A stretch of DNA of 26,897 nt from a virus (lineage: Duplodnaviria; Caudoviricetes), in IMG/VR virus record IMGVR_UViG_3300027186_000022, positions 1 to 26,897 of that record. The stretch is one strand, 5' to 3'. Position 1 is the first letter of the stretch. Each line of letters begins with the position of its first letter. The position numbers and the translations under genes are program-made. A model generated the notes under the pieces. That model was not told the origin of the DNA. It searched no databases and worked only from the letters and a program-made list of their open reading frames with translations. Positions 1-24,057 of the stretch are shown in pieces.

Positions 1-529
1 GTGCGACATCGGAATCATTAAATACAAACGTACCATTATTAGAATCCAATGAGAATATCGCAGTATTGTTTGTACTTAAAGACAATCCTAGACTAGTCTT
101 GTTGCCATCACTATCGACTACAACTAAGTCACCGCCACTATCTTGAATTGATAATGAACCCATCTTAATTGAACTACCACTTAGATAAAGGTCACGCCAT
201 CTATGTGTAGGTGTTCCGAGGTCGTATGTTACGTCATCAGCGGGTTCTAGATTACCAACAAAATCTCTATTGGTAAATCCAAAGGTATATGTATTTGCGG
301 AACTATCAAATGTTACAAAGATGTTCTCTTCACTACGTAAGTTGGTTACTTCATAATTACTTGTTGTGGTATTATATGCAAGAATAGAACCATTTTCTTC
401 GGTTGCAGACACATCCACACCACCCAAGTTGGTGATAGCGAATGAACCAGCGGTAACCTTTTTTACTGGTGTTCCTACAACAATTTTTTTGACTACAATC
501 TTGTCACTATACGTAGCTTTGATAGCCAT
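1..529 (-). CDS. Putative tail fibre / virion structural protein, N-terminal part (runs off the left edge)
   Basis: Not in the ORF track because it has no stop in the window. ATG at 529-527 is preceded by purine-rich AGAGGAAAGAG. The frame is open to the edge: MAIKATYSDKIVVKKIVVGTPVKK...GNLEPADDVTYDLGTPTHRWRDLYLSGSSIKMG...VDSDGNK...FNDSDVA. The 'G.L.P..D.TYDLG....RWRDLYLSG' segment is typical of phage fibre proteins. Confidence 0.75.
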   Translation of the reverse strand, partial: MAIKATYSDKIVVKKIVVGTPVKKVTAGSFAITNLGGVDVSATEENGSILAYNTTTSNYEVTNLRSEENIFVTFDSSANTYTFGFTNRDFVGNLEPADDVTYDLGTPTHRWRDLYLSGSSIKMGSLSIQDSGGDLVVVDSDGNKTSLGLSLSTNNTAIFSLDSNNGTFVFNDSDVA

Positions 530-975: not shown

Positions 976-1650
976 TTAGTAATCGGACATTATTTCTTCT
1001 ATGATTTCGTCTTGCATACCCATAGACATTGCACTCTCGTCAAAGATAAAAGAAACGGTTATTCTCCAACAATTAGTTTTTGCGGCATGATAAACTCTTT
1101 TGTCCCAAGATTCACTATACGAACCAAAGTATCCAGCTTTGCATTGCCAACCCTGTACATCTTGCATGACAACATCTTCGCCTGTCTTACCATCAACATA
1201 TTTGAAGTATCCGTCTCCAGTTTCTGACCAAGAGAAGATTAAGTTATATGCACACGCATTTGCATTGTTATGCCACGAGAGAAACCCGCCAGGCGGATAC
1301 ATTGTGAACAATGCACACGTTCGTGTAGAGAATATGGTACACAATTTTTCATTAAGTATACTAAATCTTTCTACGAGTTTTGCTATTTCAGCATTATTTT
1401 TGGTCTTACCATTAGTGTCTAGATGAGTGTTTTTTAGTGATATTGAGTGAGTAGCTTCTGGATACCCATCGTGGTCGGTATCCATGTTTATAATTTGGTC
1501 ACGATACTCATCACTTGTAAACCAATCCGCATCCTTTTCACTTCCATTAACACGCAAAAGTGACATTAGATGTTCACGGTCATCATAGTATGTTTTCACT
1601 TCTTCGAGAAGTTCAATGACTTCCTTATTTCTTATAGGAATATTTTTCAT
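976..1650 (-). CDS. 2OG-Fe(II) oxygenase-like / double-stranded beta-helix protein
   Basis: 224 aa. 'YPPGGFLSWHNN' ... 'VYHAAKTNCWRITVSF' matches the Y.PGG...WHx[D/E]...H......R...F layout of prolyl-hydroxylase-type 2OG oxygenases, but with HxN in place of HxD. Confidence 0.6.
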   Translation of the reverse strand: MKNIPIRNKEVIELLEEVKTYYDDREHLMSLLRVNGSEKDADWFTSDEYRDQIINMDTDHDGYPEATHSISLKNTHLDTNGKTKNNAEIAKLVERFSILNEKLCTIFSTRTCALFTMYPPGGFLSWHNNANACAYNLIFSWSETGDGYFKYVDGKTGEDVVMQDVQGWQCKAGYFGSYSESWDKRVYHAAKTNCWRITVSFIFDESAMSMGMQDEIIEEIMSDY

Positions 1651-2393
1651 TATACAATCAACTTATCCTTCTGTAAACATCCAGAATAGTGTCTCAATAT
1701 TGGGGGTTTATCTGGTTTTTTCAAACCACTATAATCATACTGTGTAAAGTAGTTCCATCGAATGTCATCATCAAAGATTCCGATCTTCAAGCCTTTGTAC
1801 TTTTCCACCTTCTCGGTCAACCACCAGAGGGTTGTCTGATCAAAGTGTTTGAGGTCTTTGTTCCAAATATCATCATCAAAACCATCGGGTTTCCATTGAC
1901 CCGAATGTTGTCTACGATACAGATCATCCCAGTCCTCCATGAACTCTTTTACTAATGGATTGGAACTACGATAGAGACACACACCCCCACATAACTTGTA
2001 CTTCTCAACGCCACCATCAAACTTAAATTCACGAATTGCATAAAACTTTTCACGTTCTTTATTCAATTCATGAAAGACTAAATCATAGTCCTTCATTTCA
2101 TCCCAGACCTTTGCGATGTCTTCGTGTTCGCATTCCATGTCTGCATCAACATACATGGTGATGTCGTAGGGTGTTTGGGCCATACCAGTTAGTTTCGCAC
2201 GATAATGATTGTCACAAATTTCGACATTATCAGCTTCATCTGCACGATGGTCAATAAACCTTTCTTCAGTGAAAAGTGTTATATTCGCATCAGGATACCA
2301 GTCTCGGATTGATTCTATTAGGTTGCAAGCGTAAATGTAGAAGTTTGAATTTCTGGATGCAACAATCACAAAACCTTTAGTGAGTTCCTTCAT
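1650..2393 (-). CDS. GT-A fold glycosyltransferase (GT8 / nucleotide-diphospho-sugar transferase-like)
   Basis: 247 aa. N-terminal 'GFVIVA...Y...A..L..SIR....A.ITLFT', 'K......TPYD.TMYVDAD' (DxD motif), 'GGV.LY', 'DQ..L' and C-terminal 'RWNY...I.HY' are all characteristic of GT8-like enzymes. Confidence 0.8.
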   Translation of the reverse strand: MKELTKGFVIVASRNSNFYIYACNLIESIRDWYPDANITLFTEERFIDHRADEADNVEICDNHYRAKLTGMAQTPYDITMYVDADMECEHEDIAKVWDEMKDYDLVFHELNKEREKFYAIREFKFDGGVEKYKLCGGVCLYRSSNPLVKEFMEDWDDLYRRQHSGQWKPDGFDDDIWNKDLKHFDQTTLWWLTEKVEKYKGLKIGIFDDDIRWNYFTQYDYSGLKKPDKPPILRHYSGCLQKDKLIV

Positions 2394-2826
2394 TTTTCAT
2401 AGAGTCCTGTATAATTAAAATAGCGTAAAGGTTCACTTCAGGGACAGACTTAGAACGTCTCAGTTTAGATTTCAATGCACGATTCTTAGATGCTTTGATT
2501 TCTTCGATCTCAAAGGTTTCTAGTTTATATGCAAATAGTTTCTCTAGTTTCTTCGCACGTTCCTTTTCAAGTTTTTGTTGTTTATCAACTTCTGCTTCTT
2601 CTTGTTTCTGTTCGAGTCGTTTCTTACTTGAATTGTTAATCTGTTCTTCGCCAAGAAACGCAACGACTTCTTTGAAATCTTCGTTCTCTGTGCCGTCAGC
2701 GTTTAACTTGTCGAGTTTCCAAACCTTACGAGTTGTTTTATTTCCTTCGACAATCTCACTAATTGCATTTAGAGTTTTCTTTCGAGGGGTTTCCCAAAAT
2801 GCATTATCTAACCATGTTCTAGACAT
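2377..2826 (-). CDS. Hypothetical protein with a charged C-terminal helix (possible fibre assembly chaperone)
   Basis: 149-aa ORF with RBS AGGAGA upstream; it overlaps the start of the glycosyltransferase gene. K/E-rich coiled-coil-like stretch. The function is a guess from position only. Confidence 0.6.
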   Translation of the reverse strand: MSRTWLDNAFWETPRKKTLNAISEIVEGNKTTRKVWKLDKLNADGTENEDFKEVVAFLGEEQINNSSKKRLEQKQEEAEVDKQQKLEKERAKKLEKLFAYKLETFEIEEIKASKNRALKSKLRRSKSVPEVNLYAILIIQDSMKNEGTH

Positions 2827-2865: not shown

Positions 2866-4986
2866 TTACGAAACCCTTTGGTATAGGGTATATGTTGCAC
2901 TGACAAAGGTTCCACTACCAACAGTTGTTCCTTGAAAATCGCCAGTATAGTTACCAAGAAAGTTTCTACTATAGTTTGCACTGAAAGTACTAGTACGTGA
3001 TCTCGTTGAGGTCGCTGTACTATCACGAGTAAAATCACCTGTGGAATTTCTGGTAAAATCCTGCGAGAATGTGGAAACTCGATTCCTTGTATAGTTAGCA
3101 GAGAAGACAGAACTTCTCGTTCTTTGGTATTCAGCTGAATATGCAGAACTCCTCGTTCTTTGGTATTCAGCCGAAAATGCAGAACTTCTCGTTCTCAAGA
3201 AGTCCCTAGAATAATTACCAGTGTAGTCACCTACATAATTGCTTGATCGTGTTCTCTGATAGTTTGCACTAAATGCTCTTGAATAATTACCAACAAAGTC
3301 GCCAGTAAAGTCATTAAGAGAATCTCTGGTAGAGTTAAGAGTAGAATTTCTTGTAAAATCGTTTGAGTAATTACCAGTATAGTTACCAACAAAATTGCCT
3401 GTACTCGTTCTCGTACTCGCTCTCGTACTCGTTCTCGTACTCGTTCTCGTATATGTTGATCCATCATTCCTAGTACTAGTACGTGTTGATGTTCTGGTAT
3501 AGTTACCAGTAAAGTTACCATAATAATTTGTAGTGCCTACATATGATGAAGATTGTCTACTAGTACGTGTTGATGTTCTGGTATAGTTACCAACAAAGTT
3601 ACCAGTAAAGTTACCTAAGTAGGTTCTACCGTAGTTACCAAAGAAGTTACCAGCAAAGTCACCAGCATAGTTACCAGTAAAGTCTGTTACACGAGTTCTG
3701 GTATACGCTTGGGAAAACACATTTGTAAAGTTACCAGTAAAATCACCTGTGAAATCACCAGCAAAGTTACCAGTAAAGTCTTGTGTATAATTAGCTTCAA
3801 AGTCTCTGCTATAATTACCAGTGAAATCACCAACAAAGTTACTTGTACGTGTTCTCTGATAGTTTGCACTAAATGCTCTTGCATAGTTACCAGTAAAGTC
3901 TCTGCTATAATTACCTGTATAATTGCCTACAAAGTTTCTCGAATAATTACCAGTATAGTTACCAACAAAGTTTCTACTATAATTACCAGTGTAATCACCA
4001 AGAAACCCAGAATTTGAAAAATTGCCCTCGAAGTTGCCGGTGAAACCTGACTGGAAATTACCAGTAAAGTTACCTAAGTAATTTCCTGCAAAGGTTCTGG
4101 AATAATTTCCTTCAAAACTACTTGATCGGGTTCGGGTAAAATCTGTGGTGTAATTTACGTCCCCTGTTGAGTGACGTGTATCTGTCGCAGTACCACGAGA
4201 GACCCAAGTACCTGACGAAGATGGCGCACCTTGTGAATTACTTCTTAACTGATAACTACCAATATCAACAGGAAATGAAAAACCATCTTTTTGCATCCTA
4301 GTTTGACATCTTGTACCAAAGGTATAACCAATTTCGGCATCAGTCATTTCCTGAAGACCTTGGAAAGTGCCTGTCAGACCACTAGACCTTTTGATTGCAA
4401 CTGGTCGCACAGCCGTGGGTGCGGTCATCGTATCTCTTATATACAGATTATAAGTTGTTCCGGCAGTACCATCAACCAGAGTATCTTCAAAGACTCCAGC
4501 TTTGTATACCGAATAATCTGAACTGGGTGCAGATGAACCGATCTTGATTGTGCCAGGATATTCGGATGTTGTAATACGAGAAAGTAATCGGTCGGTGAGA
4601 GTGTCAACTTCCGAAGAATCTAACTCATGTATTTCGGACGTTCCGCTGTTATCAGTAAATTCAATTGGGTATCGGAATGCAGATGAATCATTGGCAAAAT
4701 CAACTGTATCAGCAGTACCTTTCTGAAATAGTGTCGTTTGCACTGTGGTTACAGGAACACCACCACCATCGAATGCATGACTGCCTGGCCCAGAACTATA
4801 ATACCCATCGGTAAGCACACCAACAGTTTTAACATTGTTATTAACAGTACACAACATACCTAGGGCGTTAGAATCTAATGTAGAGATATGCAACCCAGCT
4901 TGGTACGCAAGGTAGTTCTCTTCGGTAGTCGTTATTTCCTTGAGGTCACCATTAGTGCCTTCAAGTTTTAGTGTAGTATCTCCCAT
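2866..4986 (-). CDS. Tetrapeptide-repeat fibre-like virion protein A (706 aa)
   Basis: RBS AGAGG upstream. About 275-aa N-terminal region paralogous to 4998..7616 (shared EENYLAYQ.GL, YPGT, TMTAPTAVRP.AIKRS.G, QGLQ.MTD, GTATDTR). It is followed by about 410 aa of xG(N/D)(F/Y) and xRT(S/R) units and a C-terminal TYTLY.R. Confidence 0.85.
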   Translation of the reverse strand: MGDTTLKLEGTNGDLKEITTTEENYLAYQAGLHISTLDSNALGMLCTVNNNVKTVGVLTDGYYSSGPGSHAFDGGGVPVTTVQTTLFQKGTADTVDFANDSSAFRYPIEFTDNSGTSEIHELDSSEVDTLTDRLLSRITTSEYPGTIKIGSSAPSSDYSVYKAGVFEDTLVDGTAGTTYNLYIRDTMTAPTAVRPVAIKRSSGLTGTFQGLQEMTDAEIGYTFGTRCQTRMQKDGFSFPVDIGSYQLRSNSQGAPSSSGTWVSRGTATDTRHSTGDVNYTTDFTRTRSSSFEGNYSRTFAGNYLGNFTGNFQSGFTGNFEGNFSNSGFLGDYTGNYSRNFVGNYTGNYSRNFVGNYTGNYSRDFTGNYARAFSANYQRTRTSNFVGDFTGNYSRDFEANYTQDFTGNFAGDFTGDFTGNFTNVFSQAYTRTRVTDFTGNYAGDFAGNFFGNYGRTYLGNFTGNFVGNYTRTSTRTSRQSSSYVGTTNYYGNFTGNYTRTSTRTSTRNDGSTYTRTSTRTSTRASTRTSTGNFVGNYTGNYSNDFTRNSTLNSTRDSLNDFTGDFVGNYSRAFSANYQRTRSSNYVGDYTGNYSRDFLRTRSSAFSAEYQRTRSSAYSAEYQRTRSSVFSANYTRNRVSTFSQDFTRNSTGDFTRDSTATSTRSRTSTFSANYSRNFLGNYTGDFQGTTVGSGTFVSATYTLYQRVS
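3108..3195. repeat. 36-bp tandem coding repeat (about 2.4 copies; QRTRSSA(Y/F)SAEY)
   Basis: cagaacttctcgttctttggtattcagctgaatatg / cagaactcctcgttctttggtattcagccgaaaatg / cagaacttctcgttct. Confidence 0.9.
3401..3450. repeat. 12-bp tandem coding repeat (4 copies; TRTS/TRAS)
   Basis: gtactcgttctc gtactcgctctc gtactcgttctc gtactcgttctc gt. Confidence 0.9.
3474..3592. repeat. Exact 35-bp direct repeat pair, 84 bp apart (GNYTRTSTRTS)
   Basis: tactagtacgtgttgatgttctggtatagttacca at 3474-3508 and 3558-3592. Confidence 0.9.
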
Positions 4987-4997
4987 AATACCTCTAT

Positions 4998-7616
4998 TTA
5001 TGCGGTTCTTACATAGAGTGTATATGTCTCAATGTTTGTGGGACTACTCCCTATTTCTGTGCCAGCGTAATTTCCTGTAAAGGTTCTTGAATAATTACCC
5101 TCAAAACTTCTCGCATAATTACCAGTATAGTTACCTATATAATTCTCCGATCTTGTTCTTGTAGAGGTACGTAAAAATTCACTACTGTAGTTGCCAACAT
5201 AGTTACCAACGAAATCTCGTGAGAATTCTGATGCGCCAATGTAACTGGATACTCGTGTTCTCTGAAAGTTTGTTGTGTAATTGCCCACAAAGTTTCTTGA
5301 ATAATTACCAGTAAAGTCACCTGTGTAGTTTCCTTCGAAATTCTTTGAAGACGTTCTGGTTGAAGCTCGAGTAGAATTTCTGGTTGAAGTTCGGGTAGAT
5401 GTTCTAGTATAAGAGGCTGTTCCACTACCAACGGTTACCGTATAGCGAAGAGAGGAGCTGGTTGATTGTAGGCGAGAGAGTGCTTGGGCGAAACCGCCCT
5501 CTGGCGACCCATAAGAACCACCATAAGCGGCTGGTGTGCTGTCCTCAATGTCGCCAGTATCACTATTCTCCGCCATGAACAAATAAGTATAAAAAGCCGG
5601 GCCTTGATTGGTCATTTCATTATATTGGAAAGCACGGTAGAATCTCATTAGACGTTGACCACCATCAACATAACCAGTAAAATATCCTGCCATCTGAAGA
5701 TAAGTAATCGTTCTTGAGCCGGAACTTACTATAGTAGTATCCACATTAGTAACAGCTTCATTACTACTTAGAGTTACCACAGCAGTACCAACATAGTTAC
5801 CAAGGAAATTACCACCGTAGTTACCAGTAAAGTCCCCAGTAAAGTTACCAGCATAGGTACTTGTACGTGTTCTCTGAAACTGTGTATTCCTCTCCCTTGT
5901 ATAATTACTTGTTCTAGTTCTAGTGAAGTTGCCGACATAGTCACCAACAAAGTTACGACTAAAACTATCTTCTACGGTTCTGGTACTATTTCGGGTGAAG
6001 TCACCAACAAAGTCACCAGTAAAATCACCATCAAAGTAAAGAGTTCTTGAGAAGTTGCCGACATAGTTACCTGCGAAGTCGCCAACAAACTGATTCTGTC
6101 TAGTACTGGTTCTTGTATAACTGGCTGAATAGACACCTTGGAAATTATGATTATAATTCTTTTGTCTAACCGCCCAGTTATCGGTGAGGGTATAACCTGT
6201 TATCGAAACACCTCTCTCGTATGTAAAACCATCATTGCCAGGATATGAAGTCACGTTCATAGCAGTGCTGTGATTTGAGTAAGAGTTCTGTATTACAGTG
6301 ACGCCGTTAAAGACAACATATAAAGTTGCTGAATTGCCATAATAACTGCGGACAACCCTCCAATAGTAAGTAGAATTATTACCGTAATAGGGACTATTGC
6401 TGACGCCCAAATAGTCACCAGCATAGTTACCAAGGAAATTACCAGTATAACTACTTGTGCCTTGGAAGTCTTGGTTACGATCTCTGGTACTAGTTCTAGA
6501 ATATGTACTGGTTCTCGTAGAAACTCTTGTAAAGTTTTGGTCTCTTTCTGTAGTATAGTTACCAATGTAGTCGCCCACAAAGCCTGGCGAGTATATACTT
6601 GTACGAGTTCTAGTATAGGTGTCGCTAAAATTACGAGTATAATTACCTATAAATTGTTGTGAGAATGTCGAAGCTCTATCTCTAGTGTAGTCTTGTGAGT
6701 AAGTAGAATCTCTTTGTCTCGCATATGTTGAAACCCTACTACGTGTATAAGTTGCATCAGTAACCGCTTGTCGAGTGTCTGTTGCAGTACCCTTTGATGA
6801 CCACGAACCAGAATACCCATTTGCGACAGGAGTACCTTGTGCAGAACTTAGAAGTAAGTAGGAACCGACAGGATTAGCCGACTGACCAATTCGATTTTTT
6901 GATACAGTACCCAGACTTTGACCTATCTGTCGGTCTGTCATTTGTTGAAGACCCTGATAATCACCACTATCACCATTAGACCTTTTTATCGCAAATGGTC
7001 GCACAGCTGTTGGTGCGGTCATGGTGGTTCTTTTATGAAGATAGTATGGAACAGTAGTACCATCTGTCCTAGTGTCACTAAAAATATGTTTTTCAATCGC
7101 ATAGTCGGTAAGTGACCCAGAAGAAGATAATTTGTATGTGCCTGGGTAATCGTTTGTATAGATGGTCGAATTAATTCTATCGATCACCCTGATTTGGTCA
7201 GAATCATCCATCTCCCTGATTTTAAGTTGGGGTATAACTGTATCAACACCACCATCAGTCTGGGTATAACCCACACTAGTATCGGAATCTGAATAGATAA
7301 GTCTACGTACATCACTGTCCGCATTAGATTGAACAAAAGTATTTTGTCCTATTACTGAACCAACAGTGGTGATCGGCAAGAAACCGCCAACTCCAGATGG
7401 AGTACCCACCGCAGAATCATAAGAGGTATTAACGAAAGTGCCGATAGGTTGATAAGAAGATGCCGCCAAAGACGTAGACAGTCTACCAGTATTAGTAGAG
7501 TCCTGTTCTGCGAGATATAGACCTGTTTGGTATGCGAGATAGTTCTCTTCAGTCGAAGAAAACTTCTGAAGTTCTGTTGGCGCTGCACTATCCTTTAATT
7601 TTAATGGAACACTCAT
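4998..7616 (-). CDS. Tetrapeptide-repeat fibre-like virion protein B (872 aa) with two inserted non-repetitive domains
   Basis: RBS GGAG upstream. Paralogue of 2866..4986 in its N-terminal ~285 aa and in the C-terminal TYTLYVR. The repeat tract (about 5060-6750) is interrupted by non-repetitive segments at about 6130-6400 and 5421-5780. Confidence 0.85.
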   Translation of the reverse strand: MSVPLKLKDSAAPTELQKFSSTEENYLAYQTGLYLAEQDSTNTGRLSTSLAASSYQPIGTFVNTSYDSAVGTPSGVGGFLPITTVGSVIGQNTFVQSNADSDVRRLIYSDSDTSVGYTQTDGGVDTVIPQLKIREMDDSDQIRVIDRINSTIYTNDYPGTYKLSSSGSLTDYAIEKHIFSDTRTDGTTVPYYLHKRTTMTAPTAVRPFAIKRSNGDSGDYQGLQQMTDRQIGQSLGTVSKNRIGQSANPVGSYLLLSSAQGTPVANGYSGSWSSKGTATDTRQAVTDATYTRSRVSTYARQRDSTYSQDYTRDRASTFSQQFIGNYTRNFSDTYTRTRTSIYSPGFVGDYIGNYTTERDQNFTRVSTRTSTYSRTSTRDRNQDFQGTSSYTGNFLGNYAGDYLGVSNSPYYGNNSTYYWRVVRSYYGNSATLYVVFNGVTVIQNSYSNHSTAMNVTSYPGNDGFTYERGVSITGYTLTDNWAVRQKNYNHNFQGVYSASYTRTSTRQNQFVGDFAGNYVGNFSRTLYFDGDFTGDFVGDFTRNSTRTVEDSFSRNFVGDYVGNFTRTRTSNYTRERNTQFQRTRTSTYAGNFTGDFTGNYGGNFLGNYVGTAVVTLSSNEAVTNVDTTIVSSGSRTITYLQMAGYFTGYVDGGQRLMRFYRAFQYNEMTNQGPAFYTYLFMAENSDTGDIEDSTPAAYGGSYGSPEGGFAQALSRLQSTSSSLRYTVTVGSGTASYTRTSTRTSTRNSTRASTRTSSKNFEGNYTGDFTGNYSRNFVGNYTTNFQRTRVSSYIGASEFSRDFVGNYVGNYSSEFLRTSTRTRSENYIGNYTGNYARSFEGNYSRTFTGNYAGTEIGSSPTNIETYTLYVRTA

Positions 7617-7632
7617 CGTGTCAATACTCCGA

Positions 7633-8730
7633 TTAGTTTAGTTGAGTTCCATTTACATCGTATATAAGTGGGACATCTGCTCTTAGAGCATTAAGTGCAT
7701 TTACAAAGTTATCTCGTTCTGAACCAACAAACGCAACATTAAGATTACTTAAACTTCCCAAACGATTGTCACGTATACCAGCATCAGAGTCTAAAAGAGA
7801 AATATCATCTGCAAGTGAGTTGACTACAGTTACAAGACTTGTTCTATTTCCTATGGAACCATCAGTATTTAGTTGTGCAATATTACCTACCGCACTATCT
7901 AGTAGTCTAATAGATTGACCTATGCGGTTTGCCCTGAGATTTCCTGAACCGCCTGAGTCTGGAATTGCACCCATTTCAATGTGTAATTCATTAATCGCAC
8001 CACGAACAGTAGTCTCAGAAGTAGAAAGAACTGCGGCACCAATCTCTGCATCCAATTCGTTGATACCATCAGCGAGTGTTCCTGCCGTAGTAGTCAATGC
8101 CTGTGATGGTTCAACAAAGGTATTGAGTGTATCAATCTCCACTTCAAGTTCTGCAATCGCACCTGATACAGTTGTTGCAGTAGTACCCATCGCATCCGCA
8201 GTGATTGTACCTAACTCTGCATCAAGTTCATTAACCGAACCTGTAAGAGTTTTTGCGACAGTGGTCAGAGTTGTATGTGGTGTCGCACCAATGTCAGAAT
8301 CTAGTTCATTGATTGCGCCCGTAAGATGTTTCTTGGTAGTGTTAAGATTATTTTCAACTAGGTTGGAAACATCACCTCGAATTGCAGTTTCAAGTTCGTT
8401 GATTGCATCAACAATACAAGTTTGGTCATTTGTACCTAAATCCGCAAGCGTTCTTTTAGTACCACCTTCCGCATTGTACAGGTCTTGTTCTAGTTCGTTG
8501 ATACCTGCTACAAGGTTAGTTGCAGTAGTGGTAATTTTCGCAGAAACAAGTTCATTGGAAGCTCCTCGAATTGCAACTTCAAGTTCGTTGATAGCAGCAA
8601 CTGCACTAGAGTCTTCATTAGTATTCAGACGCCCAGTCGCACCCAAATCCAATGATATGGTGTTTTGATTGGTTACCAACGTAGTGAAGGTATCCTGAAT
8701 ATCTGTGATTGTAGGTTTATTAGTCGCCAT
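7633..8730 (-). CDS. Segmented coiled-coil fibre/stalk protein with 'L.T....(L/V).GAINEL' repeats
   Basis: 365 aa with about 8 clear and 3 degenerate copies of a 25-35-aa unit (AVAAINELE, LVAGINELE, IVDAINELE, LTGAINELD, LTGSVNELD, VSGAIAELE, LADGINELD, VRGAINELH). This repeat type is common in phage fibres and whiskers. Confidence 0.75.
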   Translation of the reverse strand: MATNKPTITDIQDTFTTLVTNQNTISLDLGATGRLNTNEDSSAVAAINELEVAIRGASNELVSAKITTTATNLVAGINELEQDLYNAEGGTKRTLADLGTNDQTCIVDAINELETAIRGDVSNLVENNLNTTKKHLTGAINELDSDIGATPHTTLTTVAKTLTGSVNELDAELGTITADAMGTTATTVSGAIAELEVEIDTLNTFVEPSQALTTTAGTLADGINELDAEIGAAVLSTSETTVRGAINELHIEMGAIPDSGGSGNLRANRIGQSIRLLDSAVGNIAQLNTDGSIGNRTSLVTVVNSLADDISLLDSDAGIRDNRLGSLSNLNVAFVGSERDNFVNALNALRADVPLIYDVNGTQLN

Positions 8731-20504: not shown

Positions 20505-22003
20505 GGCGTAAATCTCTTTCCTCTATTCTCAATTGCATTACCAATAGGTTCAAATCCAAATCTAGATGAAGCGGATTTCTTCGCAGTCCTACCAACTGAT
20601 GGTGGAGTCTTTGTTTTATATTGTGGATTGAGTCTTTCTTCTGCAACAAGAGTCGAACCAATAGTATTACGAGATGCCGAGTTTCGAAACGCAGAACGAA
20701 TCTCTTGGGTTGTCGGAATCTTATCGAATACGTTTTTATAGTCATCTGATAACAGGGTTTTGGTCAATAATACATCTCCACCATCAACCACAACTGTTCT
20801 GATTGCATAGTCACCATTGACCGCTTGACCTATTACCCACTCACCAGTAATTTGTGCTTGACCAAGACCCGAACTCGGATATTGAAATTCCTCTGCAAAT
20901 ATAGGAGTATGTGTACTTGCACTTAACAGGTCGGGTGGTGTGAATGTTGCCGAACCCACCGCAGCAGTACCAGCGGTTACTGCGGTCTTCGCAGCTTTTG
21001 CATTCTGTGCATAGTATGACCTAAGTGAAAGATCAGCGAAGTTTGCGTTATTCGCTTTCCATGCTTCAGACGCCTTACCAAAGAACGTACCATAGAAGTT
21101 CGCACCTGAGTTAAACTCAACAGGGCCTTCGCCACCTTGGAATACGTTACCTGTAAAGTCAACCATTCTACCACCGATTGCACCCTTTTGTCCCATAACA
21201 GAAACATACTTCGCACCAGTGATGTTTGCATTCTTACTCGTGATTGCAACTGCTTCCTTACCTGACACGAGGATATTGTCCTCCGCAGCAATCTCAATAT
21301 TACCCTCAACAAAATTCTTTTGGTCTAACTTGACAAACTGATTGTGGTCTGCTAACATAACATCTGTAACGGTACTCAAGGTTCTGTTTGTCTTGGTCTT
21401 CTTAACAGTCTCTTCACGATTACCTGTTGTGATGGTTCGATGATTCTGTTGAATCTCTTCACGTAGACTACCACCAACATTGACATTGTAGTTACCACCC
21501 ACGTCAACATTGTAGTCACCAGTCACCTTCATGTTCAAGTTACCTTGATACACGAGATTACCATTACCCTCAATGATGACAGTCTGGTCACCACCAGTCA
21601 CTTCGACCTTGTTGTTTACTGCGGAAATGATAACAGAACCATCTGCCCTCATCTCCACACCCGCACCTGTACGATGTTTGATCAGTACTCGTTCACCGCC
21701 AGGCGTGTCATCCTGTTCGATTACATGACCCGACACAGTTTCCTGTACTTGGTTGAACGGATATTCGGAAGGACGTTGTGACTGTATCCCCAAAGATACA
21801 CCAATGTCACCACCCCCAACATAGAGGTTATTCGTCTTGGAACCACGAGATGCCTTATTGATTGATGACCCATAGTTATACTCACGTTTGGGGTACTCAC
21901 CAGTAGGGTCTTGCATTCCATCACTAGGAACACCCAGAGTATTCTCTGTACCTTCACCGATCTTATCGACTCTTAGGTCAAAATTGTCTTTCTTAGTTGT
22001 CAC
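20501..22003 (-). CDS. gp5: Tail spike, T4 gp5 C-terminal (beta-helix) moiety
   Basis: 500 aa, GTG start overlapping the upstream TGA. 'DPTGEYP', 'YPFNQV.ET.SGHVIE.DDTPGGER....HRTG...E...DG' followed by V.G.YN..V.G octapeptide beta-helix repeats. Confidence 0.85.
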   Translation of the reverse strand: MTTKKDNFDLRVDKIGEGTENTLGVPSDGMQDPTGEYPKREYNYGSSINKASRGSKTNNLYVGGGDIGVSLGIQSQRPSEYPFNQVQETVSGHVIEQDDTPGGERVLIKHRTGAGVEMRADGSVIISAVNNKVEVTGGDQTVIIEGNGNLVYQGNLNMKVTGDYNVDVGGNYNVNVGGSLREEIQQNHRTITTGNREETVKKTKTNRTLSTVTDVMLADHNQFVKLDQKNFVEGNIEIAAEDNILVSGKEAVAITSKNANITGAKYVSVMGQKGAIGGRMVDFTGNVFQGGEGPVEFNSGANFYGTFFGKASEAWKANNANFADLSLRSYYAQNAKAAKTAVTAGTAAVGSATFTPPDLLSASTHTPIFAEEFQYPSSGLGQAQITGEWVIGQAVNGDYAIRTVVVDGGDVLLTKTLLSDDYKNVFDKIPTTQEIRSAFRNSASRNTIGSTLVAEERLNPQYKTKTPPSVGRTAKKSASSRFGFEPIGNAIENRGKRFTP

Positions 22004-24057
22004 TTATTCATCTCCGATGGACTCAATGGCGCAGAATTTAATGGGTCACCTATTTTATTCTCTTTTCTGAATACCGACTCAATATAATCCTGTACATCAA
22101 AGTATGGGTCAAATTCACTTGCATCAATGTCGTTGTGTCCAAACACTTGTCCGCCTGGATATCTACGATAATAACTATTGACAAACTTTTCTAATGTGGT
22201 AAACTGTTCTCTAGTAAACGATTGTGCAGACCTATAGTCTGTAGGGTTGTTATCACCCGAAGAAACATTCAGTCCACCCACCATTGCAATACCTATAGAG
22301 TATGTATCATGGCCATTGACCACAGCGTGTTCACCGATACGGTTAACTGGTCTACCACGTTGCAGTCTACCATCTCTACGAATCACATAATGGTATCCAA
22401 TACCCTCATGTCCCAACTCTACTTGTAGGTTATTTATCTCAACCGCACCTATATCTTTATTGGTGTATGTCTCGGTTGCATGGATAACCAACTCTGTGAT
22501 TTGACGGAAGACATTACCAAATTCCGCATCAAGTTCCTCGACAGATGATACCATAGTGAACATATCATCTGGACTACTCTTGCCACTCCATTTCGCTGAC
22601 TGATCAATTGGTTCTGCAACATCAAACAAGTTAGCACTAACAACAAAGGAACCACTAATGGTAGTATCCAAATCACTCATCTGTTGTTCAATAGATGATA
22701 TTTCTTGTACCGCAATCGCAATCTCTGATTCTGGGATACCTCGTCTTCTCGCTTCCTCTTGCATCTTTATTTGCATATCTAAGGTAGTAGAAGTATTAGG
22801 GTCATCACCAAGAACTTCTTTCATGCGGTCTGATACATTAGGTGACTTGGACACAAGAGTCTTAACACCCTCCTTCTTATCCTTACTATTACCCGAATTA
22901 AACTGTTCCAGTATCGCAATTCGTTCTTGTTCTGATGATGATATCCCGCCAGGAACCAGATTCTCAATGAAAGATGATGCAGCACCAGTTAGTGATTCTG
23001 CAACATTTTGTAGAACACCAGACAAACCCCTATTACTTCTACCATCAAAACCAGTGTTGAAGTTATCCGCTCCTTCCTTAAATTTATCTAACGAACTAGA
23101 AACATTTTTCACATCAGTATCTACAATACCAGCGGCAGTACCCAACTCTGGTATTTCGGATTTAAGTCCCTGTTTTTTATCGGTCAGTCCATCTAGGTTA
23201 GTGGAATTTACAACAGAGTCTGTCGCTTTCTGAATCAACTTGCCAGGCAATGCTTGTGCTTCATCAATTGCATCAGTTACAGTTGAAACTGCATCATTTA
23301 TAGCTGCAATGGGTGCAATCGAACTTAATGTGTTCGCCAGATTACCCGAAAACTTTAGATTACTCATGGAAGGTCTAGACAGGAAATTACCGCCAATAGA
23401 ACTAGGAGGTCTCAGTGCTTCGGTAATATTCGTGAAGGTTTCTATTTCTGCGAAGTCTAACGATTTCTTATTCTCCGCAATACCTTGACATTTTGCAATA
23501 CTCTCCGCAGTACCATCACACACAACCGCAAGTGCAGAAGTCGGGTTGGTCGCTTTAAGTGCTGGAAGTCCTGTTAATGATGTAACAGATGTTGTCTTAG
23601 AACCAAACGAACGAGCGGGGTCGGTTATATCACGACCAGCACTCTGGGTTATCGTAAGATTACCAGAACCATCAGAGTCTATTGTTTGAGTTTTCTCCAC
23701 TAGACTACCATCCGAGTCAGTTGGCACTTTCAAACGAAGAAAATTACCATCTGAGTCGAGTACAGTATCACTTGTTGTTGATGTGTTATTCCCCTGTATA
23801 CCAGTAATTCCATTAATGTTGTCGGTGAACTGTCCTACCGAACTGTTGATAACCTCTTCCGAAGAGTTTGTAGATTGACCTAGTGTCTTTATACCAGCGA
23901 CTTCTAGACCATTTTCTTGACCAATGATAGTATTACGTTTCGCAAAACGTTCTTCGATTGCCCTTCTACTAGAACGAAGATGTGTCGCCTCTAGACTATG
24001 TTTCTTTCTGTTCTCGGAACCGAGATTAACATTCAAATTTGTTTTATCAAGTGACAT
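22000..24057 (-). CDS. Virion-associated protein with a C-terminal N-acetylmuramoyl-L-alanine amidase (T7 lysozyme / Amidase_2 type)
   Basis: 685 aa. The last ~165 aa read 'LVIHAT...IGYHYVIRRDGRLQRGRP....GEHA...SIGIAMVGG...FTREQF..L...YP...VFGHND......DPYFDV', co-linear with T7 lysozyme. The N-terminal ~520 aa are S/T/D/G-rich and unassigned. Confidence 0.85.
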   Translation of the reverse strand: MSLDKTNLNVNLGSENRKKHSLEATHLRSSRRAIEERFAKRNTIIGQENGLEVAGIKTLGQSTNSSEEVINSSVGQFTDNINGITGIQGNNTSTTSDTVLDSDGNFLRLKVPTDSDGSLVEKTQTIDSDGSGNLTITQSAGRDITDPARSFGSKTTSVTSLTGLPALKATNPTSALAVVCDGTAESIAKCQGIAENKKSLDFAEIETFTNITEALRPPSSIGGNFLSRPSMSNLKFSGNLANTLSSIAPIAAINDAVSTVTDAIDEAQALPGKLIQKATDSVVNSTNLDGLTDKKQGLKSEIPELGTAAGIVDTDVKNVSSSLDKFKEGADNFNTGFDGRSNRGLSGVLQNVAESLTGAASSFIENLVPGGISSSEQERIAILEQFNSGNSKDKKEGVKTLVSKSPNVSDRMKEVLGDDPNTSTTLDMQIKMQEEARRRGIPESEIAIAVQEISSIEQQMSDLDTTISGSFVVSANLFDVAEPIDQSAKWSGKSSPDDMFTMVSSVEELDAEFGNVFRQITELVIHATETYTNKDIGAVEINNLQVELGHEGIGYHYVIRRDGRLQRGRPVNRIGEHAVVNGHDTYSIGIAMVGGLNVSSGDNNPTDYRSAQSFTREQFTTLEKFVNSYYRRYPGGQVFGHNDIDASEFDPYFDVQDYIESVFRKENKIGDPLNSAPLSPSEMNK

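Follow-up and report, generated by a model that had tools for sequence, protein, structure and literature searches.

To our knowledge, the known phage fibres are either parallel trimers (beta-helix, collagen or coiled coil) or short fold-back needles. The gene considered here, P0001, lies on the minus strand of a 26,897-nt stretch of viral DNA (Duplodnaviria; Caudoviricetes; IMG/VR record IMGVR_UViG_3300027186_000022, positions 1 to 26,897), the whole of which is called the window. Its 706-residue product carries a long tract of four-residue units. An original prediction, made from the sequence alone, read the tract as a mirror-complementary code folding back into one antiparallel hairpin, of no recognized fibre type. 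The analysis makes it quite probable that this tract is a stalk in the form of a single-chain, twisted, antiparallel two-stranded ribbon, set on a three-repeat body that caps a trimeric fibre, with a role in adhesion.

Three described systems are the closest. In the T4 tail-fibre protein gp37, as in P0001, an elongated out-and-back insertion (the D11 needle, rising from the D10 collar) is followed by a C-terminal segment that closes the base domain, again in a tail-fibre context (PMC6957217). The D11 needle comprises 128 residues, is trimeric and holds seven His-bound irons (PMC6957217). In contrast, the P0001 insertion comprises 413 residues (more than 3000 in the relative from phage C48C1, OQ984149, Kyanoviridae), has no His and follows a complementary code of period four; moreover, the family can branch and is likely monomeric. 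PDB sequence and profile searches gave no sequence match to gp37. The gp38 protein of T2/S16-type Straboviridae sits as a monomer at the tip of a trimeric fibre (PMC12032242), as the P0001 family is predicted to do from a relative. Its conserved N- and C-termini form the base, the middle is variable and the gene lies beside the fibre gene; the protein comprises an attachment domain, a beta-helix and a compact polyglycine II sandwich (PMC12032242). Unlike gp38, P0001 would have as its base a three-repeat, prism-like body for a 12-residue tip motif, and its middle is a self-paired stalk. Glycine-rich motifs of the gp38 type are absent from the P0001 sequence, which has no PHROG or Pfam match. 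Finally, the MABP fold is a three-repeat, pseudo-threefold beta-prism (PMC2881412), of which one beta-hairpin is elongated in perforin-2/MPEG1 (PMC6753088). The P0001 body likewise has three homologous internal repeats with one hairpin extended, as in MPEG1, but it adds a helix per repeat and a docking hairpin, and the extension is far longer and coded.

A paper that distinguishes 16 fibre classes does not use the word 'hairpin' in its main text (PMC12143355), and a literature search, mostly outside subscription papers, returned no description of the family or of a coded fold-back stalk. Within that literature, the view that this is not a described fibre type holds. The proposed job, that of a fibre-tip cap, is of a known kind.

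The P0001 tract as a probable hairpin

P0001 and its paralogue parse as follows.
2866..4986, minus strand: P0001, 706-aa gene with the stalk, second of two paralogues (open reading frame list)
4162..4986, minus strand: body, P0001 residues 1-275 (AlphaFold, repeat alignments, fold matches)
3559..4161, minus strand: outgoing arm, residues 276-476, 50 units and one bulged residue near 324 (nt 4015-4017)
3523..3558, minus strand: tip loop, residues 477-488, 12 residues, without a tip domain
2923..3522, minus strand: returning arm, residues 489-688, 50 units
2866..2922, minus strand: C-terminal strand closing body repeat 3 (family ending ETYTLYVRTA, in P0001 ATYTLYQRVS)
4998..7616, minus strand: P0002, 872-aa paralogue with the same body as P0001

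The repeat tract, residues 284-684 of the minus-strand open reading frame 4986-2866, carries aromatics at a spacing of four residues, the phase shifting once at about residue 324. The centre of symmetry is SSSYVGTTNY at 3552-3523, as claimed, and the midpoint of the two anchors (276, 688) is residue 482, inside that centre. The tract had been located correctly, but the stem begins about 8 residues earlier than proposed (4161-2923). Mirror complementarity surpasses that of shuffled units: a hand-set unit score, devised after seeing the data, exceeds that of every one of 1000 unit shuffles and of 1000 run shuffles (z 3.7-4.1). The pairing was also computed with a nested, RNA-like folding program, whose pair scores were trained on 49 homologue clusters with P0001 and six others held out. 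The held-out P0001 folds as one hairpin, 276-476 with 489-688, comprising 50 unit pairs and a single 1-residue bulge, so that 97% of the tract is paired. Its score of 120.4 compares with 58.0±4.5 (maximum 73.2) for 500 unit shuffles, with 74.1±4.5 (maximum 94.1) for 500 three-unit block shuffles and with 65.7 for a parallel arrangement of the same arms.

In a tally of the 50 pairs, the two classes originally proposed make up only part of a wider code: position 2 holds 22 G-R, 17 G-other, 6 R-S, 2 S-S, 2 R-R, 1 N-N and 0 G-G pairs. At position 4, at least one partner is aromatic in 50/50 pairs. The Ser expected opposite the aromatics accounts for 14 of these, the rest being aromatic-aromatic (26), Arg-aromatic (9) and Asp-Tyr (1). 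The tract (401 residues) contains no His, and the stalk is net positive, with 41 Arg/Lys against 27 Asp/Glu.

The pairing code among relatives

The homologue search returned 619 matches, of which the best 120 were used together with 7 longer and 65 shorter proteins; from a wider set, which extends the family to 639 clusters at 50% identity, 150 were used. Complete members have in common a body of ~270 residues and a conserved, ETYTLYVRTA-like final strand. Of 129 complete proteins, 117 contain both anchors, and these reduce to 56 below 80% body identity. In the simplest reading, units are taken inward from the anchors, without gaps or fitting, yielding 931 pairs in 56 clusters. Gly-Gly pairs are depleted, at 42/931 (4.5%) compared with 12.0±1.2% when the arms come from different proteins (minimum 7.5%, 1000 permutations), and pairs with exactly one Gly are enriched, at 573/931 (61.5%) compared with 47.1±1.9%. 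Pairs in which neither residue is aromatic number 3/931 (0.3%, against 3.7% across proteins). The code is no Gly-Gly at position 2, mainly G-R, G-A and R-S, and at least one aromatic at position 4.

Excess mutual information (882 pairs) is highest at the register that places position 2 opposite position 2. On the Gly/Arg/aromatic face the secondary couplings lie along the +2 diagonal, and on the Thr/Asn face along the -2 diagonal; in a twisted pair of antiparallel strands, the diagonals of the two faces are opposite. The proposed placement of Arg opposite Gly agrees with this coupling pattern, beyond which sequence alone cannot fix the register. The held-out P0003, P0004 and P0005 form ungapped stems of 42, 43 and 32 pairs, respectively, and 38 of 60 clusters never used in training score above all 12 of their shuffles (2 more have too few units).

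Some relatives carry the same body with stalks in other alphabets (P0291, P0297, P0309, P0236, P0262), including five-residue GVRNV/GPQPQ units, GSRQF units and Pro-rich or Cys-containing repeats, some of them visibly mirrored. These stalks suggest that several pairing codes exist.

The same mirror register would also be kept by a ribbon with crimps or supercoils, or by one that folds up, either on itself or onto the ribbon of a neighbour, burying the aromatic stripe and giving a stalk far shorter or thicker than 65 nm. We regard this as improbable, although it accounts for the aromatic stripe, which is on one face in all 50 pairs and would be exposed on a flat ribbon; the stalk has no confident model, and Gly-Asn/Asp steps frequently leave the beta region. 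However, no longer-period turn signal is apparent: stems continue for 38 to 103 unit pairs without a gap and their Gly spacing is irregular, the arms vary freely in four-residue steps, and the diagonal couplings resemble those of a plain twisted pair.

Probable branched and giant relatives

The paralogue P0002 parses as a three-way junction, in which a 14-unit trunk (6591-6758 with 5055-5222) gives rise to branch 1 (5973-6578) and branch 2 (5241-5960), each with a non-repeat tip domain. Two or more tips occur in 62/219 complete members. One member has a repeat-propeller-like tip with a precomputed match to Pfam PF14312 (FG-GAP).

The body was found in 1 of 50,697 GenBank phage records, that of C48C1; this near absence may be why the family has gone undescribed despite its 639 clusters. 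The C48C1 member, held out of training, is 3347 aa long, and its parse contains 232 unit pairs, counted in helices of at least three. Its outgoing arm is nearly continuous, five domains are looped from the returning arm and one stands at the tip. Near 1900-2060, where one of its side domains ends, the same protein (L001 19980-30023) contains an exact repeat of ~74 residues that may be an artefact of assembly. Matches in Synechococcus phages were rejected on the one examined, S-RIM2, which shares VTGN composition only and is not a family member.

An extended strand spans ~3.3 Å per residue. By this measure the stalk could reach up to 66 nm in P0001, for which the original prediction gave 65-70 nm at full extension, and, with ~930 residues per arm, up to ~300 nm in C48C1. 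On balance, we lean towards an RNA-like grammar in protein, by which a four-residue code would specify single-chain beta-ribbon stems, bulges, three-way junctions and side-loop domains, the C48C1 stalk of ~300 nm being capped onto a trimeric fibre.

The body

The body consists of three ~90-residue repeats (about 3-92, 104-188 and 192-275, the last completed by the C-terminal strand). AlphaFold, run with a 100-row alignment, is confident for residues 1-280 and 684-706; the body blocks mostly have pLDDT 82-98, with two loop blocks at 60-64, and the stem base is formed by confident long strands, 261-279 and 684-704. Once the stem is excised, repeat 2 aligns to repeat 3 in a profile comparison (probability 97.5, E 7e-12), and the stem occupies the site of a short beta-turn in repeat 2; it is therefore inserted into repeat 3. 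The matches of repeat 1 are weaker (E 5e-5 with repeat 2, 1e-4 with repeat 3), and BLASTP found no match between repeats, so that profiles were required. In P0128, a domain of ~140 residues stands between body repeats 1 and 2, a second site at which the body accepts an insertion.

The best fold matches are MABP beta-prisms, both MACPF-associated and of MVB12, with Z 6.9, 6.4, 5.7 and 5.0, below the caution level of 8 (rmsd 3.7-3.8 Å for the top three, 116-121 residues, identity 7-14%). Foldseek on PDB and BFVD, with a second look through VIA, gave nothing at E<=0.001 or Z>=2. PDB sequence searches with the body and its profile returned no significant match, the profile search no Pfam match, and the ESM Atlas matches only to unnamed viral clusters. 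The idea that the body corresponds to the T4 gp10/gp12 collar found no support: the gp10/gp11/gp12/gp37 collar is absent from the listings of the fold searches (706-residue model) and profile searches. The body is predicted to be a pseudo-threefold, beta-prism-like docking cap.

Predicted docking on fibre tips

Two fibre genes of the window are candidates for carrying such caps.
7633..8730, minus strand: 365-aa tail-fibre-like protein (PHROG 25848), ending in the conserved 12-residue fibre-tip motif (7636-7671)
2..529, minus strand: first part of a large fibre gene that the window end truncates

Among 43 distinct genes upstream of the family (72 loci), 25 end in (I/V)(Y/F)(D/N)xxG(T/V)(Q/L)LN and 1 in a close variant; the remainder are 5 cut family genes and 12 other genes. 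A second, large fibre farther downstream ends in the same tip motif. In a contig with an identical P0001, this fibre is about 2080 aa long, with the motif at its end, and lies just before the neck (Ad2) gene, which is the place of wac in the T4 gene order. The 12-residue C-terminal motif is common to two otherwise different fibre types (window 7636-7671; L077, L078, L079, L081, L082, L084). Some upstream fibres (L036-L045) end in a strand, ..YMWRRTA, that resembles the closing strand of the family and may hint at kinship with gp10/gp12-type ends.

For complex prediction, a relative of 401 aa, its body 41% identical, was combined with the stub from its own upstream gene in three copies. The complex scores 0.78, compared with 0.00 for the best of 3 controls; contacts agree by at least 95% between runs, and partner pLDDT is at least 73. 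The mark set for this score is reached by 116/157 solved complexes and 2/215 mismatched pairs, counts that apply only roughly to this complex. Residues 94-105 (the last 12) of each stub copy are predicted to touch the opening hairpin of one body repeat, the three hairpins being equivalent. This lends support to the proposed binding of the cap to the fibre tip, and the 12-residue motif is predicted to be a portable docking tag for the cap. PDB sequence searches with body and tip profiles found no similar solved complex.

The one complete genome examined contains two family genes and two tips. Over 26 records, nine contain 2 and 2, six 1 and 1, and nine others are cut short or were not followed. 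A quick tree, meant for picking orthologues, places P0001 with second-gene orthologues, in a group beside single genes from genomes with the large-fibre tip only. The large fibre is therefore the likely partner of P0001, and the 365-aa fibre that of P0002.

A homotrimer in which three hairpins intertwine as a needle in the style of the T4 gp37 tip, or in which arms pair between chains, would share the out-and-back topology of gp37 D10/D11 (PMC6957217), and trimers are the rule for most phage fibres (PMC12032242). Complementarity in sequence cannot separate pairing within a chain from pairing between chains. The trimer would then form a six-stranded needle, as the gp37 tip does. Even so, such an arrangement appears distinctly unlikely for P0001: the body is already internally threefold and its repeats are predicted to be occupied by three fibre tips, the 62/219 members with two or more tips are hard to fit to a symmetric needle, and the tract lacks His. 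A body predicted to cap three tip copies favours a monomeric stalk, and the two-stranded, single-chain ribbon gains indirect support from this predicted capping and from the branched members.

Arm lengths and points against the ribbon

The arms of 13 orthologues range from 132/132 to 442/442 residues and are equal to within 2 in each, an equality partly favoured by the folding method. Native per-residue scores are 0.26-0.32, compared with 0.19±0.03 for 156 cross-arm pairs drawn from these 13; the 4/156 that reach the native range are all between near-identical siblings. When 45 clusters that have one non-repeat insert are segmented without reference to pairing, the arm lengths correlate (r 0.79); the arms are within 8 residues of each other in 15/45 clusters compared with 2.7 expected, and many of the misses are branched members. 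A pairing-free search for the tip by phase break was centred in 2/13 orthologues only, and mostly off-centre because Arg-type units fall under the threshold. The antiparallel, in-register fold-back of the original prediction is supported by covariation beyond cross-protein controls, by the equal arms, by the AlphaFold strands at the stem base and by insertion at a beta-turn. That prediction did not include the body, its putative docking partner, branching or the wider code.

Besides the help that equal arms receive from the method, several results weigh against the ribbon or its docking. The near-identical P0145-P0149 have 4/13, 10/7, 4/7, 7/7 and 7/7 units per arm (counted by eye), and P0082 lacks 12 residues on one arm relative to P0064. 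Of 5 usable pairs in a pairwise indel test, whose anchors were badly placed, 2 had the change in one arm and 0 were equal. Under the hand-set score, the best circular shift of the return arm reaches 37, against 38 for the native register. The long anti-diagonal stripe expected of an AlphaFold monomer did not appear: with the same 100-row alignment, stalk residues 293-674 have pLDDT <50, and no model shows a ribbon. Single-sequence AlphaFold (pLDDT 28.6, <50 for nearly the whole chain) is uninformative. Of the 60 unseen, distant clusters, 22 failed to beat all 12 shuffles, several of them with other repeat alphabets. The complex prediction concerns a relative and not P0001. G023 has one family gene and two likely tips; in the genome of C48C1, which also has a family gene, a fibre-tip motif was looked for and not found. 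A strict rule of one cap per tip is not universal, as G023 and C48C1 show.

The one-arm indels of P0145-P0149 and P0082 are suspected to reflect assembly collapse of exact 36-nt repeats, which relatives contain in tandem; a close relative, in three contigs, has balanced 44/44 arms. Both the tandem 36-nt repeats with one-arm indels and the circular shift (37 against 38 under a crude score) could be read as signs that DNA events (inverted duplication, slippage), or the two-class composition of the repeats, produced the mirror pattern without any pairing in the protein. This we consider very improbable. At the best shift, DNA identity between the outgoing arm and the reverse-complemented returning arm is 33%, on which a DNA palindrome was rejected; composition-preserving shuffles and cross-protein controls fail to reproduce the pairing, and the register is tied to conserved protein anchors.

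Proposed architecture

For the single-chain ribbon, the following picture is proposed. The chain would run out from the body and return as one long, twisted antiparallel beta-ribbon. What the sequence shows of this is that the arms are equal and pair in mirror order, that the stem enters at the turn of the third body repeat and that the C-terminal strand closes that repeat. According to the prediction, one body chain fits over the end of a trimeric fibre and engages its three C-terminal tips, with one copy of the tip motif per body repeat, which would resolve the 3:1 symmetry mismatch. One face of the ribbon would present Gly/Arg and aromatic/Ser/Arg, and there Arg would cover the Gly across from it and stack between aromatics; the other face would carry Thr/Ser/Val and Asn/Asp/Thr. 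The code would set the register and keep a repetitive chain from slipping. The stalk would act as an adhesion antenna, lengthening the reach of the virion towards the host surface. Relatives have variable domains at tips and in side loops. In P0001 the loop is just 12 residues long and the stalk is net positive, so that binding is probably via the stalk surface or the loop.

Gene neighbourhood

As a whole, the window corresponds to a structural module, encoded on the minus strand, from a T4-like phage, and most sequencing runs containing the stretch are of marine origin. Its remaining features are the following.
Minus strand: baseplate hub, wedge and gp9/10-like genes, a 1743-aa DUF4815 protein and an LtfC-like gene
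2377-2826, minus strand: 149-aa unknown protein (linked trio)
1650-2393, minus strand: 247-aa glycosyltransferase-like protein (linked trio)
976-1650, minus strand: 224-aa unknown protein (linked trio)
22000-24057, minus strand: 685-aa protein with a C-terminal Amidase_2 domain, among gp5-like hub genes split over several open reading frames

The linked trio comes after the family gene in 48/48 loci with enough flank, and may have a role in chaperoning or modifying the stalk. The 247-aa protein matches Glycos_transf_2 below the cut-off. The 224-aa gene has a conserved WHNN motif and a later His, and may be oxygenase-like; a PDB sequence search gave no significant match. N-glycosylation sequons are not enriched, with Ser/Thr at +2 after Asn in 48% (4422 cases) compared with 45% after Asp (2427). 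The identical P0001 sequence occurs in two IMG/VR contigs, both of which may share the source of the window. Read pieces from four public runs agree without differences with parts of the P0001 tract, and among these fragments, aligned to the tract in search of strain variants, no compensatory changes were seen.

Significance

If the ribbon reading is true, it would define a new fibre class, a monomeric two-stranded ribbon of tens to hundreds of nm that is able to branch. It would also be a case of natural base-pair-like coding in protein, in which register follows from a readable complementary code, so that stalk length and branching could be read, and designed, from sequence alone. The cross-strand pairing rules would be open to compensatory mutation, and protein design would gain a length-programmable single-chain rod. 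For marine T4-like phages, the architecture suggests how they reach sparse hosts and vary their adhesins.

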